DNA of 64,000 bases from a phage. The DNA is taken from sequence record PZ019084.1. One strand, 5' to 3'. This document shows positions 14,673-46,946 of the stretch, in pieces (the stretch's first letter is position 1; each line of letters begins with the position of its first letter). The notes below the pieces were generated by a model. The model ran no database searches. It saw only the letters and a program-made list of their open reading frames with translations, and was not told the DNA's origin. The position numbers and the translations under genes were made by a program.

Positions 14673-15036
14673 ATTTAATGGCTTGAAGAAGACTAATAAT
14701 TCTCAAGCGGCTTCTTTCATCTTTAACCGTAAAAGAAAGAGGGTCGCCAGATTTCATAGTGATGGTGCATTCAAAACTAAAATCTTCAGGAACTTCTTCG
14801 AAGAAGTCAAATTCTTCATCATATATTAGAACATTACTCTGAAAACTGTGAAGAATTTTTCCGTCATTTCCAGATGCTGTACTAATCATTGTAACATTAT
14901 TACCTTTCATATCTTCAACGATAAATTCGCTTGTAGATATTACGGCATTAATAGAACCATTCCTATAAATAGAAGAAAGCAGATATTTCTTTTCTTCACC
15001 TTCACGAACACGATATTTCTTACCGATTTTAAACAT
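14665..15036 (-). CDS. hypothetical protein
   Basis: 123-aa ORF. Confidence 0.5.
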   Translation of the reverse strand: MFKIGKKYRVREGEEKKYLLSSIYRNGSINAVISTSEFIVEDMKGNNVTMISTASGNDGKILHSFQSNVLIYDEEFDFFEEVPEDFSFECTITMKSGDPLSFTVKDERSRLRIISLLQAIKFE

Positions 15037-22836: not shown

Positions 22837-23040
22837 TCACGATTTATCCCCATAGATGTCTCTCATCAATTTAAGCGCTGAGCGTTCTAATTTCTTTTCT
22901 TTCTCAGCACTAATCATTGATTTCATCCATTCTTCTGATTCGTTTTGCATTTCTTTATTTGCCTGTTCAACCCAACCATCGTCAATGTACATTGAGTTTG
23001 GTCTACTGAACCATTCAAGCATTTTCTTCAGAACTTTCAT
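22837..23040 (-). CDS. hypothetical protein
   Basis: 67-aa ORF. Confidence 0.45.
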
Positions 23041-23512
23041 CTGTTTTACCTAAAACAACAGTAGGAGCATCATCAAATTCATGAATTTTTAGCAAATTTG
23101 GATGTAAACTATTCCATACAGAAGAAATAAAGTATGATAAAGCATCTTCGTCCACAATTATAAATTTATTTCCTTTATCTATTTTCCAACTATATACTGA
23201 ATCGTACGAATAAAAAGATAAAGGTTCATCATTATATTTTTCTGTGTTAACATTAATGTATTCTGATTTAGTAAATGCTTCAATTGCTCTAAATGGAATA
23301 TTTGGCACAGTTTCAATAATACCAATCTTTTTAAGTTTTATTTCAGCATCTTCTGGAACTGGCATTGAAACGAAATTTTCTACGAGATACATTGGGTCGC
23401 AATAACCCTTATCAATCATTACTGCTACGGTAATTGGAACATCTTTAGCAAACGACATACTATTACTGCTAATATACATTTCAAACAAAATCGCTTCCAT
23501 AATTTTCCTCAA
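23015..23512 (-). CDS. hypothetical protein
   Basis: 165-aa ORF. Confidence 0.5.
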
Positions 23513-24409: not shown

Positions 24410-24430
24410 CAGGTGTATTTATATCAGTCT
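24410..24430 (-). promoter_or_regulatory. late promoter (TATAAATA) for soc
   Basis: plus tatttata at 24416-24423 gives TATAAATA on the minus strand about 32 nt upstream of soc ATG. Confidence 0.6.
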
Positions 24431-24597: not shown

Positions 24598-24794
24598 TTT
24601 GAATGCTCTATAATTAATTTTAAGGCTTCTTCACTGACAAAAATTTCATCAAGACCTTCTTCTACACCCCAATCAACCACACGAAGCTGATTAGATAAGA
24701 GCTCACATACGAGCTCCTTGTCATAATTTTTAAATAGCTGGTCAATACGTTTCTTGTGGGCTTTCTTAAGTTGTCGTTTATTTAAACGAGCCAT
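24594..24794 (-). CDS. hypothetical protein
   Basis: 66-aa ORF coupled to gene 56. Confidence 0.5.
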   Translation of the reverse strand: MARLNKRQLKKAHKKRIDQLFKNYDKELVCELLSNQLRVVDWGVEEGLDEIFVSEEALKLIIEHSK

Positions 24795-25312
24795 TAATAA
24801 CCTCGGTCTTGGCGAGCGAAGTTTTCAGCATTTTTCAGATAATAAAGTTTAAAGATTTCTTCAGCCGTAAGACCGAGACCTTGGAACATGTTCAGAACGA
24901 AATGAAGAATATCAATCATTTCGAATTTAATTTCCAACTGGTCTTGTGGAGACAAATCAGTAATTAAAGTTTCACGACGTTCACCATGTTGAGCTTTCCA
25001 TGGCTTCCATACAGCAGATGCATCTTTTTCACCATTGCTCATACCACCAAGAGAAGTCAGAAGTTCGCGGAATTCATCATCAATATAATCTTTTTGATTA
25101 CGCAGCCAATCAACAACTTCGCCTGCAGTAGCCAAATCATCAGGATGACGGTTATATTCAGGTTTATCTTTAGCTAAACGAACCTGCAGAGATTTCTGCA
25201 TATCAAGCATAACCTGCAGCGGGTCTTTTTCATCACCGAGAATATCCCAGTATTCATTTTGAGCTTTATCAGCGCCTTCAATCAGTTGTGAACATTCATT
25301 AAAGTATGCCAT
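24794..25312 (-). CDS. 56: dCTP pyrophosphatase (MazG-like)
   Basis: start set at ATG 25312 (MAYFNECSQLIEG...) with SD aaggaaa, giving ~172 aa like T4 gp56; upstream in-frame extension in ORF track is hydrophobic and lacks SD. Confidence 0.8.
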   Translation of the reverse strand: MAYFNECSQLIEGADKAQNEYWDILGDEKDPLQVMLDMQKSLQVRLAKDKPEYNRHPDDLATAGEVVDWLRNQKDYIDDEFRELLTSLGGMSNGEKDASAVWKPWKAQHGERRETLITDLSPQDQLEIKFEMIDILHFVLNMFQGLGLTAEEIFKLYYLKNAENFARQDRGY

Positions 25313-25383
25313 TATTTTTCCTTTCAATTCATGGGTTAGTAGATTAATTATACAATAAATATATAAAGCAATAAGGAGGACAT

Positions 25384-25584
25384 ATGGTACAAAAATTAAT
25401 GGCACTTGTTAATGCCATAAAAGGTAATAAAAAACGTATAGCTTTTACTATTTCTGCTATGGTAGGAATTTTACTCTGGAATTTTGTTTTATCGCCAATT
25501 GCTATTGCTCATGGTGTTAATATTCCAGTAATTACTCTTGATACATTCGTAGATTTAGCATTTGCTTTAGTTGGGTTAATTTAA
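25384..25584 (+). CDS. small hydrophobic protein, opposite strand to neighbours
   Basis: 66 aa, two predicted TM helices; strong SD aaggagga 5 nt upstream of ATG; fills the 56-61 gap. Confidence 0.4.
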   Translation: MVQKLMALVNAIKGNKKRIAFTISAMVGILLWNFVLSPIAIAHGVNIPVITLDTFVDLAFALVGLI

Positions 25585-31291: not shown

Positions 31292-32140
31292 TTAATCAAC
31301 TGCTATTGGATGAATAGCATTAAACTTATGAAACGCTTCTGATTTTTCTTTGCGCGAAACACACATACGAAGAACCTTTAATGGCTCGTCTTCTTCACCT
31401 AACGATTTTCTCTTTTCAATATTCGATGTTTTCCAACGAGCTTGCTCTGGAAACTCTCTATTGATTTGCTCAAGAGCTCTATTATGTTTTGAATTACTAC
31501 GAATTGAACTACATCCACCGGGAGCCTGTGCTTTTCCAGATACAACCAGATATTTGAACAAAGCCAAATGCGGATAACCTTGATTAATTAAATTGAGAAA
31601 TGCATACATATCTTCGCATAAATCAATTTTTCCATACCCAATTTGTTCTGTTGTAAGTTTTCCAAGGTCATACCAGGTATTCGTGAATCCATATGAATTT
31701 TCACGATAATTACCCCAAGATGAAGTAATTTTAAAAATTGGTAGACGAGCATGACCATGATAATACCCACAATCCATGGCATCTTCAACGTATTGAATCA
31801 ATTCATAGAACTGTTCACGAGTTAATTGATTAATTTTATCTACGCAGCGACGATCATCTTTCTTTCGCATTGAACTCATACGAATAGTAGTATCATCATC
31901 AATCATCCAGATTCGTTGACCTGCATACATATCAGTAATTGCTTTACGAGTACCAGCAATTCCGTTAACATCATCAGGAATAGTTATAATTTTAGCTCTA
32001 GACCCGTAAGCGTCATAATAAGCTTTTTCTTCGTGTTCACGTACTACAATATGAGGTTCATAATCAGTCGGAAACATGTCAAGGGCAGAAACTGCCCCTA
32101 CGCGTTGATAGCTTGGAATTACGAATTGAATCATTTCCAC
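31292..32140 (-). CDS. putative DNA glycosyltransferase (candidate HMC-glucose-modifying enzyme)
   Basis: 282 aa with GT-A-like acidic motif (IWMIDDDTT); occupies the uvsX-42 slot where T4 has the 351-aa beta-gt. Confidence 0.45.
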   Translation of the reverse strand: MEMIQFVIPSYQRVGAVSALDMFPTDYEPHIVVREHEEKAYYDAYGSRAKIITIPDDVNGIAGTRKAITDMYAGQRIWMIDDDTTIRMSSMRKKDDRRCVDKINQLTREQFYELIQYVEDAMDCGYYHGHARLPIFKITSSWGNYRENSYGFTNTWYDLGKLTTEQIGYGKIDLCEDMYAFLNLINQGYPHLALFKYLVVSGKAQAPGGCSSIRSNSKHNRALEQINREFPEQARWKTSNIEKRKSLGEEDEPLKVLRMCVSRKEKSEAFHKFNAIHPIAVD

Positions 32141-39537: not shown

Positions 39538-39566
39538 AATTTTATAACTAATTTAATAAAGCAATT
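39538..39566 (-). promoter_or_regulatory. probable MotA-dependent middle promoter for gene 45
   Basis: minus strand TTGCTTTA (MotA-box consensus, plus taaagcaa 39557-39564) about 12 nt upstream of TATAAAAT. Confidence 0.5.
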
Positions 39567-39954
39567 AACGATTAAAATCAGCAGCAATTGTTTCCGCAAC
39601 AATTTGAGCAGCAACAATTAGACGTTCATCTGCATTACCGCAATAATCATCTTCAAGGCGTTCACCACATGAAGTCATAATAAATTTAGCACCAGCATTT
39701 AGAGATTCTGCCGTATGTTTGCGCATCAGTTCAATCCATTTATCACTCACTTCACGATCGATGGCTTCATAATACGCATGACGAGCAGGTGCAGATTTAA
39801 TTTTGCTCTGAATAACTTCCATTGCGTTATCAGAAAGAGACAAAACCCATGCTCGACGAATTTTATTTTGGTTTTGTGGATTTGAATCAGAACGCACGTG
39901 TTTTGGCTGAATATCTTTTACATCAACAGTATAATTCACAGTAATTTTAGTCAT
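39565..39954 (-). CDS. rpbA: RNA polymerase-binding protein RpbA
   Basis: 129 aa; length and position upstream of gene 45 as in T4. Confidence 0.65.
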
Positions 39955-39963
39955 AATACACCT

Positions 39964-40155
39964 TTAGTCATAATAATCAGTAACAGTCCAAGCTTCATTC
40001 CTGTTGGACATTATTTTCGTATATTCTGATTTAAATGCATTCTTAAGCATAGATTCAGTAACTATATGCTCTTCATTAGAAAAATTATTTCTCAGAATAT
40101 ATCGTTTTATTTCAGGAATAGTTAATAGATGCTGTCCAGTTGAATATTCTGCCAC
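39964..40155 (-). CDS. hypothetical protein (45.2 position)
   Basis: 63-aa ORF. Confidence 0.5.
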   Translation of the reverse strand: MAEYSTGQHLLTIPEIKRYILRNNFSNEEHIVTESMLKNAFKSEYTKIMSNRNEAWTVTDYYD

Positions 40156-40165
40156 AGTTCCTCCG

Positions 40166-40173
40166 TATAAATA
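40166..40173 (+). promoter_or_regulatory. late promoter motif TATAAATA upstream of HNH endonuclease gene
   Basis: exact TATAAATA on plus strand about 33 nt upstream of ATG 40207, with SD aagga. Confidence 0.55.
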
Positions 40174-40206
40174 TGTTTATCACTCGCTGTATCAAAAGGA
40201 TATGTT

Positions 40207-40923
40207 ATGAATTATAAACTAATTTATGAAAAGTTAATCTCTAATGCTAAATCTCGAAAACTTGATTGCTATACTGAATCTCATCACATTATACCACGCT
40301 GTTTAAATGGTAGCGATGACGCTTCAAACTTAGTAGATTTAACACCAGAAGAGCACTATGTAGCTCATCAACTTTTAGTAAAAATTTATCCTTCTGAACC
40401 AAAATTAGTCTATGCTGCTAACATGATGACAGTTTCTACGAAATACGCTAAACGTAACAATAAAACTTTCGGCTGGATTCGTCGTAAACTCTGGGAAATA
40501 GAAAAGAATAAAGAGTTCTCCCAAGAGACACGAAAGAAAATGTCCGACGCAGTAGCTAATAAAGCAAGACTAACTTGTCCACATTGCGGTAAGTCTGGAT
40601 TAAGCGGGAATATGAATCGATGGCATTTTGATAACTGCCCAAATCACCCCAATCCTAAAGTTAGACCGCCAATGTCTAAAGAACACAGAAATAATATCTC
40701 AAACGGGCTTAAAGCAATCGTTCTTGAAGAAACATCATGCGAATTCTGCGGAATGATAGGCAAGAAATGCGTTATCGCAGCGCATAGAAATTTCTGCAAG
40801 AAAAATCCAAATGGACGCAAGAAAACTGAAAAGACTGGTACTTGCGTCCATTGTGGTAAAGTTACCACGTTCGGAAATTTATCAAGATGGCATAATGATA
40901 ATTGTAAATATAAACCTAGCTAA
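40207..40923 (+). mobile_element. free-standing HNH homing endonuclease gene
   Basis: 238 aa; N-terminal HNH motif (ESHHIIPRCLNGSDDASNLVDLTPEEHYVAHQ) and repeated CxxCGK...RWHxDNC zinc-ribbon modules; opposite strand to flanking genes. Confidence 0.8.
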
Positions 40924-42604
40924 TCTTAGCTAAACTAAATCTACCAACTTTTTCCATTTGAATGTGCTGACCATATTCCTGTGGGTCATGGTCTTTATGC
41001 GAAATTATGAAGAAGTTGGTATCCTTCAAACCATCTAAAATTTTAGCCACATTTTTAATACCTTCAGCATCAAATGCACCGTCATACACTTCATCAAGAA
41101 ATAAACAACTTATTTTAACACCTGAAACTTTTTCAGCAATATCACGCCAAGTAAATAAAAGAGCAATATCAATTCGTGCTTTTTCACCTTGACTAAATGA
41201 AGCATAACTAAAATCTTCACGACCACGGGATTTAATTGTCTCATTAAATTCTTCATCTAATGTAAACACATAATCCGCTTCCATTATTTTAAGATAATGA
41301 TTAATCTGCTTATTAAATAATGGAATGTACTTTTTAATAATAGCACCTTTAATACCAGAATCTTTGAGCATATCAGTCAAAATTCCTCTATGGTATTTTT
41401 CCATTACTAAATTAGTTTTTGTCTTAACAATTTTATCAAGTTCTTCTTGAAGCAGTGCTATTTCATCAGCATGGTCAATAAACTCAGATGATGCTTTTTC
41501 TATAGCTGCTTTAACTTTTTTAGCTTTATCTACAGTCGTGATTAGAGATTGCTTTTTATTGCGAATATCATTCGCCAACGTCTGCTGGGTTTTAATATTA
41601 TCTCGGTATTCATCAACGAGAACTTTTAAATTATCACGATGTGTTGAAAGCTGTTCAAACGAATGCGTGCATTCAGAAACTTTATCTTTAATTTTAGAAA
41701 CAACTTTATCACCGGAACTTAATTGTGACAAACAGGTTGGACATAATCCACCTTCGTGATACATATTAATGACTTTATTATACGAGTCAATTTTTGATTT
41801 AATTAAAAATGCTTCTTGACCGATTTTATTAAATGCATCAGTCGGGTCTTCATCCAAAACAATATTAACTAATCTTTCATTAGCTTCTTCTATTTCCGAT
41901 TTTAGCGTTCTAGCTTCTTTTGCCAAATCATCATACATATTCTGCAGACGAGTAAGGTTATCACCGGTTAATTTTTTCTGACGTTCAACGTTATCATTAT
42001 ATATTTTAATTTGTTGGATAATACTATCTTTTTTAACATCAAGCACTTGGTTTTGTGAATTTAATTCACGTATTAGTGCTTTATTAAGCTTATCCATTTC
42101 AGCTAATGTTCCTACCTCGAGTAGGTCTTCGACAAGCTTTCTTCTTGCAGGAGTGGATAAGCCCATAAAAGGGGTATATCCAGCCGTGCCGAGTACGACG
42201 ATCTGTTTGAAACTGGCGTATGACATTCCGATAAGCTGTTCAAATTCTGCTTGGAAATCTTTACTGCTGGCAGATTCATTAAGACGTGTACCGTTAACGG
42301 TGATTTCGAAAACGTTTGGTTTTTGTCCTCTTTTGATATAGTACTTTTTCTCATCATATTCCATCCACAGTTCAACTAAAAGTTCTTTCTTATTTGTACT
42401 GTTTATTAATTGGCCTTTCTTTACATCACGAAATGGCTTGCCAAAAAGCCCAAATGTGATGGCTTCTAACATAGTAGACTTACCACCGCCATTTCGCCCA
42501 GTAATAAGAGTTTTTTGAACCTTATCTAGTTGAATGTCAATAGGATTTCCACCTACTGACATTATATTTTGATACCTAACTCGGTTTAGTTTAAAATTCT
42601 TCAC
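40916..42604 (-). CDS. 46: recombination endonuclease subunit (Rad50/SbcC-like)
   Basis: 562 aa; N-terminal Walker A GRNGGGKST, coiled-coil middle with CPTC zinc hook, C-terminal signature/Walker B. Confidence 0.9.
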   Translation of the reverse strand: MKNFKLNRVRYQNIMSVGGNPIDIQLDKVQKTLITGRNGGGKSTMLEAITFGLFGKPFRDVKKGQLINSTNKKELLVELWMEYDEKKYYIKRGQKPNVFEITVNGTRLNESASSKDFQAEFEQLIGMSYASFKQIVVLGTAGYTPFMGLSTPARRKLVEDLLEVGTLAEMDKLNKALIRELNSQNQVLDVKKDSIIQQIKIYNDNVERQKKLTGDNLTRLQNMYDDLAKEARTLKSEIEEANERLVNIVLDEDPTDAFNKIGQEAFLIKSKIDSYNKVINMYHEGGLCPTCLSQLSSGDKVVSKIKDKVSECTHSFEQLSTHRDNLKVLVDEYRDNIKTQQTLANDIRNKKQSLITTVDKAKKVKAAIEKASSEFIDHADEIALLQEELDKIVKTKTNLVMEKYHRGILTDMLKDSGIKGAIIKKYIPLFNKQINHYLKIMEADYVFTLDEEFNETIKSRGREDFSYASFSQGEKARIDIALLFTWRDIAEKVSGVKISCLFLDEVYDGAFDAEGIKNVAKILDGLKDTNFFIISHKDHDPQEYGQHIQMEKVGRFSLAKIS

Positions 42605-43051: not shown

Positions 43052-44067
43052 TGTGTTGCCTCTACATATAACTGATTTGCATATTGAATAAGTGCTTCGC
43101 GGTCAGAATCAGTGATGTCTGGAATTGTATTAATGTATTCTTCCATCAACGTCTGAAGAGATTGAACTTCAACTTCTTCACTATCATCTGACTCGATAGA
43201 GTTATCAATCTTTGACACAACTCGTAATGAATGCACAACTTTTTCTAGTTCAGATTCGAACTTCGTTAGATTTTTGTCTACCTCAGTTACTATAACACGT
43301 ACTGATAGATTTGTAAAATCTTTATAGTCAATTTTTCCCTTAAATGGATACTGAATTCGACGGTGCCAAGTAGTGTTGTTTGGAATAAATTCCATTCGTT
43401 CTGTTTCTGTATCAAACATCCAGAACCCGCGAGGGTCATTCTCGTCACCTGCAGTTAGTGTCCATGGTGTCCCAATATATCTGACGTTAGCAGCCTCAGA
43501 GATAGTATGGAAGTGACCAGACCACACCTCTTTATAAGTCTTAAGGAAATCAGGTTCAAGACCGTGAGATTTCATTCCTTTATAAAAATAAAATCCATTC
43601 AGTTCCCAGTGACCAACACAAAAAGAAGCAGATGAAGTTTTGATGTGTTCAAGAATTTCACCAGTATTTTCTTCGCACATCCAAGGAATTAAATCAATCA
43701 AACATCCGTCAAAATCTACTGTAGTAGGCTTATCATATACTTTAACATTAGGATATTTAGCCAAAAGCTCAGTAGAAGCATTTGGAGTTAAAGTATTTTT
43801 AAAGTGCATATCATGGTTTCCTACAACAGTATGTAGGGTAATACCAGCATCATCAAGCATTTGAACTATTTCACGAGCGAACTCCATAGTTTTATGCGTG
43901 ATTGCTTTTCGCACATCAAAAATATCGCCGTATTGAATCCATGTAGTAATTCCGTTTTTCTTAGAATATTCTATTGCTTGTTTAATTCCATCCAACTGAA
44001 TGGATTGAACCCACTCATCATCGGCTTTAACACCTAAATGCCAATCACCTAAATTTAAAATTTTCAT
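43048..44067 (-). CDS. 47: recombination nuclease subunit (Mre11/SbcD-like)
   Basis: 339 aa; phosphoesterase motifs (GDWH, GNHD). Confidence 0.9.
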   Translation of the reverse strand: MKILNLGDWHLGVKADDEWVQSIQLDGIKQAIEYSKKNGITTWIQYGDIFDVRKAITHKTMEFAREIVQMLDDAGITLHTVVGNHDMHFKNTLTPNASTELLAKYPNVKVYDKPTTVDFDGCLIDLIPWMCEENTGEILEHIKTSSASFCVGHWELNGFYFYKGMKSHGLEPDFLKTYKEVWSGHFHTISEAANVRYIGTPWTLTAGDENDPRGFWMFDTETERMEFIPNNTTWHRRIQYPFKGKIDYKDFTNLSVRVIVTEVDKNLTKFESELEKVVHSLRVVSKIDNSIESDDSEEVEVQSLQTLMEEYINTIPDITDSDREALIQYANQLYVEATQ

Positions 44068-46180: not shown

Positions 46181-46399
46181 TTATTTCTCTAATATAAAAT
46201 AAAAATCATCATCTGTTAAATGATACCGATAGTTTAATTCTACACCATTAGATTTAAAAGCGGTATCATACGGATTTTCTGGATCAATATCAATGTCAAG
46301 AGCTAAAACTTCCCTGAGATACATTTTAAGTAAATAGGGAATAGCTTCAACTTCAGGTATTTCTTCCAAGAATCCGGAGAGGTTAATCGTTAGCCTCAT
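46181..46399 (-). CDS. hypothetical protein
   Basis: 72-aa ORF. Confidence 0.5.
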
Positions 46400-46946
46400 A
46401 TAAAAAATCCAAACTAGGAGAATCGTCTACAACACTTTTCTTTTCAGCCCCCGGTGTTCTATAGGTTGATTCTTCGTAATGCGTCATTTTATCGTAGATG
46501 TCTTGAATAAAAGTTTCATCTACTAACGCAACCATATCGTCGTCACGACTGTCATAGACATTGTGAACGAAGTAACTGTATTTCTTTGCAACTTCCTTAC
46601 GTTCTTTTTTAATACGTTGGACGAATGCATTAAAACAAGCTTGAGTTATATATGCATGTGGGTTTTTATATTTCGTTTCATCAAAATTATGAAGCCCCTT
46701 AATAGAAGCTTCTATACCATCTGCAATCATTTCTTGTTTCCAGGATTGGGTGTATCCTGAAAAGTTGAAACGTTTAGATAAGCCTTCTGCAATAAGCATA
46801 ATGGCCAATCCGATAGTATCATTCTGACGAACTACTTTATTTGGGTCTTTATTATTTGCTAATTCTGTTTTCCAATCAATAATAGCTTGTAAAAGCTCTT
46901 TATTGTTTACGTAATTATATTTAGGCTTAGTTTCTGACATTTTCAC
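46383..46946 (-). CDS. 55: late sigma factor gp55
   Basis: 187 aa, near the length of T4 gp55; sigma region-2-like segment. Confidence 0.85.

Follow-up and report, generated by a model that had tools for sequence, protein, structure and literature searches.

The free-standing homing endonucleases of phage T4 cut in neighbouring genes (PMC2988022). MobE, encoded between nrdA and nrdB, nicks nrdB adjoining its own gene, the nicked patch being polymorphic and next to a block of conserved coding sequence; it is preferentially inherited, and its gene has no promoter of its own, is co-transcribed with nrdA and contains an internal terminator (PMC2790892). Two intron-encoded enzymes also offer points of comparison. 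I-HmuI of Bacillus phage SPO1, an HNH nuclease with an extended modular DNA-binding region containing NUMOD-type helices, nicks one strand (as cited in PMC2790892), and I-TevI, of the GIY-YIG family, has a late promoter immediately upstream of its gene and represses itself by binding an operator that overlaps this promoter and resembles the homing site (PMC2988022). The present analysis concerns a 64,000-nucleotide stretch of phage DNA (sequence record PZ019084.1, from now on referred to as the window) that belongs to a Tequatrovirus (T4-like phage), and in which a Mob-type homing endonuclease gene (HEG) is situated on the plus strand between 45.2 and gene 46, free-standing and outside any intron or intein.

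When comparing the HEG with these systems, T4 MobE was found to share a homologous N-terminal HNH domain and a C-terminal CCHC module and is likewise free-standing beside a conserved gene. The locus and the presumed target differ, however, and the middle part of MobE consists of NUMOD3-type repeats where the HEG protein has two extra zinc modules, while the HEG lies on the opposite strand to its neighbours with a predicted late promoter of its own. I-HmuI is similar in its overall design but is intron-encoded and lacks a CCHC finger array, and searches of PDB chains, folds and profiles gave no significant sequence or fold match between I-HmuI and the HEG protein. The likeness to I-TevI lies in the leader, where a conserved element adjoining the late promoter resembles a segment of gene 46, although I-TevI belongs to another family and is intron-encoded, and the resemblance of the HEG leader is limited to one HEG-less haplotype.

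The HEG is probably an intact homing endonuclease gene of the free-standing, Mob-type HNH kind, which homes into the gene 46 end of relatives lacking it. A database search with the HEG protein revealed PHROG 655 'homing endonuclease' (E = 8.6e-69); T4 MobE is 35% identical to the HEG protein along its entire length (E = 3e-34), and the tblastn matches include mobD and mobE records. Together with empty sites in related phages and a tract of linked polymorphism in gene 46, this agrees with the signature of a mobile homing endonuclease that was proposed in an initial annotation made from the letters of the window, mobility itself being what the pattern suggests.

The gene is already known and is an annotated member of a well-described family. 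It corresponds to RB32ORF054w (ABI94878.1; GenBank DQ904452, 2006), described as 'putative site-specific intron-like DNA endonuclease, similar to mobB', and a 2010 review gives two mob-like HNH genes for RB32 (PMC2993671, Table 5); many RefSeq and GenBank records name it 'homing endonuclease'. The copies, found in ~60 records including RB51/RB68, G28, Ozark, Aplg8 and slur07, encode proteins with 98-100% identity, show the same order (45.2, plus-strand open reading frame (ORF), gene 46) with the same 8-nt overlap, and differ from the copy in the window by a few synonymous changes and in nothing material. SYGD1 (MW883059) and the RefSeq record of ST0 (NC_041990) contain the HEG without an annotated coding sequence. 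A 100% identical protein is encoded by PV654520, 'Pseudomonas phage vB_PSGBLB0006', and since the surrounding DNA is Tequatrovirus-like this host label looks doubtful.

The features of the locus are as follows, with positions in the window.

39565-39954, minus strand: rpbA
39964-40155, minus strand: 45.2
40150-40164, minus strand: left junction, where the start of 45.2 is altered to GTG GCA... with a GGAGG ribosome-binding site (alignment of HEG-carrying and HEG-less loci)
40166-40173, plus strand: predicted T4-type late promoter element TATAAATA, exact match
40179-40196, plus strand: leader element ATC-N9-ATCAAA between promoter and ribosome-binding site, conserved in 8 of 9 lineages
40196-40200, plus strand: Shine-Dalgarno sequence AAGGA, 6 nt ahead of the ATG, conserved in Tevenvirinae orthologues
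40207-40923, plus strand: Mob-type HNH homing endonuclease gene (HEG), RB32ORF054w allele, 238 aa, ATG start
40276-40368, plus strand: HNH catalytic core, residues 24-54 (E24, H26, H27, N41, H50, H54)
40576-40638, 40738-40797 and 40843-40905, plus strand: CCHC zinc modules of the presumed DNA-binding array, with NUMOD3-like helices ahead of the first two
40916-42604, minus strand: gene 46
40917-40932: palindrome TAGCTAA TC TTAGCTA over both overlapping stop codons
40924-41107, minus strand: 3' end of gene 46, HEG-linked haplotype (co-conversion or immunity tract), 184 bp
40952-40966, minus strand: candidate cleavage/immunity position, gp46 H-I-Q-M-E (CAC ATT CAA ATG GAA; CAT CTT CAA ATG AAG in HEG-less phages)
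46383-46946: gp55 late sigma gene

The genes on the minus strand are ordered 43, regA, 62, 44, 45, rpbA, 45.2, 46, 46.1, 46.2, 47 and a-gt, and the HEG is the sole plus-strand ORF of at least 150 aa from 14.8 kb to the end of the window at 64 kb, in line with the earlier description of a plus-strand gene within a minus-strand block. The overlap of its 3' end with the gene 46 stop, also described earlier, was seen as 8 nt shared by the two ORFs at their stop codons. Position 40166, previously given for the gene, is that of the promoter motif, while the ORF itself starts at 40207.

A search with the 2.1-kb region gave matches in 659 phage records, ~504 of them at 90% identity or more. In Tequatrovirus the HEG is present in 60 records, which is ~12% of these ~504, and the empty sites measure 1386-1387 bp as compared to 2101 bp with the HEG (714-715 bp shorter); in T4 45.2 and gene 46 are separated by 54 bp. 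The gene was also found in 14 of ~155 Mosigvirus records, where the empty sites are uniform in length, and in 66 of ~114 Slopekvirus records (~58%), where the empty site measures 790 bp and the site occupied by the Mob-type gene 1551 bp. Some Slopekvirus phages (Matisse, KLB27, Toast_ER48) carry another endonuclease, annotated as HNH or AP2-type, at the same 45.2-46 site (1337 bp).

The rpbA-46 interval was aligned with that of relatives without the insert, as the initial annotation had proposed, and the insertion point could be defined from 7 HEG-carrying and 14 HEG-less loci. At the left junction identity stops at the 45.2 start codon (GTG GCA in carriers, ATG in the others) and at the right junction it stops in the last gene 46 codons, which encode ...GRFSLAKIS in carriers and ...GRFTVMV in the others. 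When compared to T4 the cassette of ~0.77 kb replaces the 54-bp 45.2-46 spacer, the last four gene 46 codons and the 45.2 ATG.

Orthologues with 43-64% identity, convergent with gene 46 and abutting or overlapping its end, were identified in nine lineages that include six named or unclassified genera; the carriers are Yersinia phage MHG19, Dhakavirus MX01, Mosigvirus 348Ecol098PP and ST0, Pseudotevenvirus Cronuts and Slopekvirus phT4A, together with three further metagenomic lineages. In Cronuts and phT4A other neighbours are found on the HEG side away from gene 46. The identities of the endonuclease and of gp46 run roughly parallel (0.63/0.65, 0.64/0.69 and 0.47/0.45). Since one and the same gene occupies this position in all nine lineages, the two-allele state is old; empty sites are also found in Mosigvirus and Slopekvirus, so that presence and absence are both old. 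The description of the gene as inserted between 45.2 and 46 is thus correct in so far as the gene is there and empty sites exist, but with the position constant in nine lineages the word should be used with care. In close relatives, endonuclease genes at other places of this neighbourhood, absent from the window, were seen between 46 and 46.1 in SYGD1 and G28 (L012/L013 7121-7975), overlapping the end of 47 in G28 and fPS-90 (an HNH gene; L013 9416-10039, L021 7832-8455) and between 45 and rpbA in F13076 (L016 3111-3998).

All seven Tequatrovirus copies of the HEG examined are intact and differ pairwise by up to 21 synonymous and 0-1 non-synonymous changes, with a ratio of non-synonymous to synonymous substitution rates (dN/dS) of at most 0.05. 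The intact ORFs and this low ratio rule out a decaying relic, and the HEG persists as an old presence/absence polymorphism under strong purifying selection. Conservation in all relatives with no empty sites, which according to the initial annotation would have spoken against a mobile gene, was not observed, the empty sites being in the majority despite the strong selection.

Such very strong selection also fits a nuclease that is retained for the benefit of the phage, as a marker-exclusion weapon or in another late DNA function, with homing secondary or lost, an explanation which overlaps with the homing endonuclease proposed above. The constant position in nine lineages, the divergence roughly parallel to that of gp46 and the high frequency in Slopekvirus point in the same direction. 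However, the HEG is absent from ~90% of the Tequatrovirus and Mosigvirus records and is therefore dispensable, recurrent homing would by itself be able to maintain the function, and no sign of another role was found; retention for phage benefit is considered distinctly improbable.

For the target of the putative homing endonuclease the flanking polymorphism was examined. All fixed differences between HEG-carrying and HEG-less Tequatrovirus outside the cassette are located at 40930-41107, inside gene 46, whereas no fixed or near-fixed difference was found in 45.2 or rpbA, although this side is polymorphic. In the last ~200 bp of gene 46 the identity between carriers and non-carriers is ~84%, against ~98% elsewhere, and the HEG-less Tequatrovirus fall into two haplotypes at this end of the gene. 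The carrier haplotype (at least 95% identity) was found in 60 records, which equals the number of HEG carriers, and a query spanning the junction showed the two joined in 59-60 records. The initial annotation had placed the target in or near gene 46 or rpbA; of these the gene 46 end is favoured, and since there is no linked polymorphism on the 45.2/rpbA side, where a target is ruled out, the target is far more likely to be found in the final ~50-190 bp of gene 46.

At the end of gene 46 the final ~70 codons (window 40925-41135) constitute a divergence hot spot with three haplotypes in Tequatrovirus, 75-83% identical while the surroundings are ~98% identical, and the differences include amino acid changes near Walker B and the D-loop. 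A similarly divergent haplotype of the gene 46 end was found in Mosigvirus Shf125875 (L035).

When analysing the linked tract one Leu codon, ~40 nt before the gene 46 stop and next after a conserved His codon, emerged as a candidate. In Mosigvirus a double, synonymous change of this codon, CTT to TTG, is the only fixed flank difference, Tequatrovirus carriers have ATT where the non-carriers have CTT or CTC, and in Slopekvirus the differences between carriers and non-carriers likewise start directly after the conserved His codon. The codon is ATT, ATC, TTG or TTA in 15 of 16 HEG-carrying sequences from nine lineages and CTT or CTC in all 17 compared HEG-less sequences of Tequatrovirus and Mosigvirus, and a scan of IMG/VR revealed an adjacent HEG in none of 19 CTT loci, two of which have too little downstream sequence to judge. 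This suggests that the cut, or a key recognition position, is at or near the candidate codons, just downstream of the conserved block ISHKDHDPQEYGQH, and such a location would parallel the MobE nick beside a conserved nrdB block.

A competing explanation keeps the gene and its way of homing but places recognition and cutting in the empty 45.2-46 spacer or at the stop-codon junction, in which case the insertion would give immunity by disrupting the site, as for endonucleases encoded in introns, and the gene 46 differences would hitch-hike. The sharp junctions with the T4-type spacer wholly replaced, the empty sites of equal length within each genus and the retention of CTT in one HEG carrier, locus L058, are all in agreement with this. 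Characterised free-standing T4 endonucleases, on the other hand, cut within neighbouring genes and not at the insertion point (PMC2988022), and the double synonymous change, ~30 nt inside gene 46, as sole fixed flank difference in Mosigvirus is hard to call hitch-hiking. Moreover, the spacer is very different from one genus to another, but in all nine lineages the HEG has the end of gene 46 as its constant neighbour, and a target in the spacer is regarded as unlikely.

The protein is predicted to consist of an HNH nuclease domain joined to an extended DNA-binding tail. Among 46 aligned homologues, the most distant of which share 37% identity, E24, H26, H27, P30, G35, N41, H50 and H54 are invariant, as are C213, C216, H229 and C233 of the C-terminal zinc module; the N-terminal ~95 residues and the last CCHC module are conserved and the middle is variable. 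A large protein database contained 2,299 homologues, many with Pfam NUMOD3 and some with Pfam HNH. A profile of the family matches the HNH cores of McrA (6ghc, E = 9.5e-4), Cas8f-HNH, IscB, group II intron maturase and pyocin AP41, and the HNH residues align to the NCBIfam IscB HNH region (E = 3.7e-5), so that the N-terminal HNH domain of the initial annotation is supported both by invariant residues and by solved HNH domains. The family profile was needed for these matches, as a single-sequence search of PDB chains gave two marginal hits only. With the HEG protein alone the Pfam HNH score is 16.9 bits, under the cut-off of 21.4 bits, while the homologue P0115, aligned over the same domain, passes the thresholds of both Pfam HNH (25.6 bits) and NUMOD3; the NUMOD3 match is weak in the HEG protein (12.6 bits) and clear in relatives (51.8 bits).

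The presumed DNA-binding array contains three Cys-X2-Cys-X11-12-His-X3-Cys modules (C124/C127/H140/C144, C178/C181/H193/C197 and C213/C216/H229/C233). The three zinc-ribbon repeats of the initial annotation are hence present, but the consensus CxxCGK...RWHxDNC given for them fits modules 1 and 3 only, the middle one reading CEFCGMIGKKCVIAAHRNFC. An AlphaFold2 model with a mean pLDDT of 89.9 proposes a strand at residues 24-27, a strand at 42-45 and a helix at 47-60, then helices and three zinc modules of the strand-strand-helix type. Whole-chain fold searches with the model gave nothing significant, the best Foldseek matches being DNA-bound zinc-finger arrays, also non-significant.

Three zinc modules with NUMOD3-like helices, a Pfam HNH score under the threshold and a conserved leader element similar to a gene 46 segment could also be expected of a non-cutting zinc-finger DNA-binding regulator, acting for example on its own late promoter or on gene 46 and 45.2. 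All catalytic and structural HNH residues are nevertheless invariant among the 46 homologues, and presence or absence together with a linked flank tract is the pattern made by an active endonuclease, which leaves such a regulator very hard to believe in.

Several observations weigh against an active homing endonuclease directed at the gene 46 end. Because L058 carries the HEG and still has CTT, a universal rule of no CTT in carriers fails and the codon is given as the leading candidate only; in addition, CTT is missing from three IMG/VR loci of other lineages that have no HEG. The sequences are interrelated, and the association rests on three within-genus contrasts and not on ~30 independent samples, while co-conversion by hitch-hiking, instead of immunity, could account for the linked differences in gene 46. 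Between Mosigvirus and the window the endonucleases share 57% identity and the gp46 proteins 82%, and the endonuclease tree follows that of gp46 only in part, which indicates a history that mixes descent and transfer. To this is added the low Pfam HNH score of the protein alone, and literature searches turned up no publication or experimental work on the HEG protein.

If the gene is nevertheless an active homing endonuclease gene, the following course of events can be proposed, where the steps of binding, cutting and repair are modelled on T4 MobE, MobA and the Seg enzymes. Late in infection gp55-directed RNA polymerase would start at TATAAATA (40166) and the transcript would be translated from AAGGA. 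In a co-infected cell the protein would bind the 3' end of gene 46 of a HEG-less relative through its finger/helix array, and the HNH domain would nick or cut, most likely near CAT CTT CAA ATG AAG, 30-55 bp from the empty insertion point. Recombination-dependent repair of the T4 type would then copy the HEG and a variable length of the donor gene 46 end into the broken genome, and the carrier genome would be protected by the linked substitutions in its own gene 46 end, as the linkage suggests.

Regarding expression, an exact TATAAATA is found 33 nt upstream of the ATG, as the initial annotation had noted. Late promoters of the T4 type are read by the late sigma factor gp55, the gene of which is present in the window. 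The motif is depleted in the 64-kb window (3 copies as compared to 9.9 expected from shuffles), and a copy so near the HEG is therefore unlikely by chance. It is kept in 7 of 7 Tequatrovirus copies of the HEG and also occurs in three other Tevenvirinae lineages, those of MHG19, MX01 and 348Ecol098PP, at -41 to -53, while other orthologues have variants, which read CATAAATA in L058 and either CTAAATA or TTAAATA in Cronuts and phT4A. The conservation is consistent with late promoter activity.

The other two copies of TATAAATA in the window are located at 14964-14971 on the plus strand, inside a minus-strand ORF and with no plausible plus-strand ORF downstream, and at 24416-24423 on the minus strand, between mrh (23015-23512) and gene 56 (24794-25405), an interval which is presumably the place of the late gene soc in T4.

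A search for an intrinsic terminator after the HEG ORF found none. The palindrome over the stop codons is weak (-5.6 kcal/mol, z = -2.6 for the plus-strand RNA; -11 kcal/mol, z = -2.25 for the minus-strand RNA), and since it is not followed by a T run late HEG transcripts probably continue antisense into gene 46. Carriers in Mosigvirus and Dhakavirus have a GC-richer palindrome, AAGCCTC-ATTAA-GAGGCTT, at the equivalent stop-codon position.

The T4-type 54-bp spacer between 45.2 and 46 (L018 4654-4708) contains a sequence resembling a MotA-box middle promoter, ATGCTTTA-N12-TATAAT, inside a 9-bp inverted repeat. This spacer with its MotA-box-like sequence is absent from the HEG carriers (window 40156-40206), and no replacement MotA-type middle promoter for 45.2 was found near the left junction, the sole MotA-like match being inside the HEG at 40716. 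With the MotA-like spacer lost, 45.2 and rpbA would in carriers need read-through across 717 nt of antisense HEG.

The leader between promoter and ribosome-binding site showed no significant RNA structure and folds no better than shuffles (z = 0.28), which rules out a structure hiding the ribosome-binding site as in I-TevI. When compared with the plus strand of the IME340-type HEG-less gene 46 (L019 4856-4873), the Tevenvirinae leader consensus has 1 mismatch to a segment 132 nt before the stop that encodes F-D-S-A-T-D (D-loop codons), where 0.07 hits at up to 3 mismatches are expected in the 9.4-kb HEG-less locus. At the same threshold there are only two hits in the whole window, and a copy of the motif with 2 mismatches is situated inside gene 47 (43399-43416). 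The Slopekvirus-type leader, read in reverse, spells F-D-G-P-L-D, which is the gp46 peptide at the corresponding place in L060 and Roth22. The leader showed no resemblance above shuffles to the favoured H-L-Q-M target codons, and when IMG/VR was scanned for HEG-less gene 46 with a site of the F-D-G-P-L-D type, the 21 hits were in unrelated sequences, at about the chance rate.

The leader may resemble gene 46 because it serves as an operator or mimics the homing site, because a duplication left a relic, or by chance alone. A bolder and rather improbable proposal is that the leader is an operator mimicking gene 46 and used for self-repression, and/or that the HEG is an ancient polymorphism common to several genera, tied to gene 46 and kept by selection as a three-finger CCHC-guided nickase. 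For the operator part it is unfavourable that the T4-type HEG-less haplotype resembles the leader poorly, that carriers and non-carriers in Mosigvirus and Slopekvirus do not differ at the leader-like place in gene 46, and that this segment is ~95 nt away from the site favoured by the polymorphism.

Elsewhere in the window, the plus strand starts with genes for a gp38-type tail-fibre adhesin (86-880) and a holin (912-1568). A beta-glucosyl-HMC-alpha-glucosyltransferase gene (31292-32140) is found where T4 has segA and b-gt, so that the phage is T2/T6-like in its DNA glucosylation, without segA at that place.

As a discovery the HEG matters little, being already annotated and belonging to a well-described family. 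Its practical value is that it provides a concrete hypothesis for an uncharacterised Mob enzyme, with a predicted target of ~25 bp in the 3'-terminal part of gene 46, where a single codon (CTT versus ATT or TTG) is predicted to confer immunity, and the predicted sensitive and resistant alleles exist naturally in sequenced phages and are thus available for direct crosses. The HEG is further a marker of a recombination boundary, which is relevant when T4-like therapeutic phages are compared or engineered, and an HNH nickase with a fused three-finger CCHC array would, provided that it is active, constitute a compact natural design for DNA targeting. Should the leader prove to be an operator, this would be self-repression like that of I-TevI and a first for a Mob/HNH enzyme, and should the polymorphism be ancient, the HEG would stand outside the usual cycle of invasion, decay and loss, tied to the Rad50-like gene of the phage.

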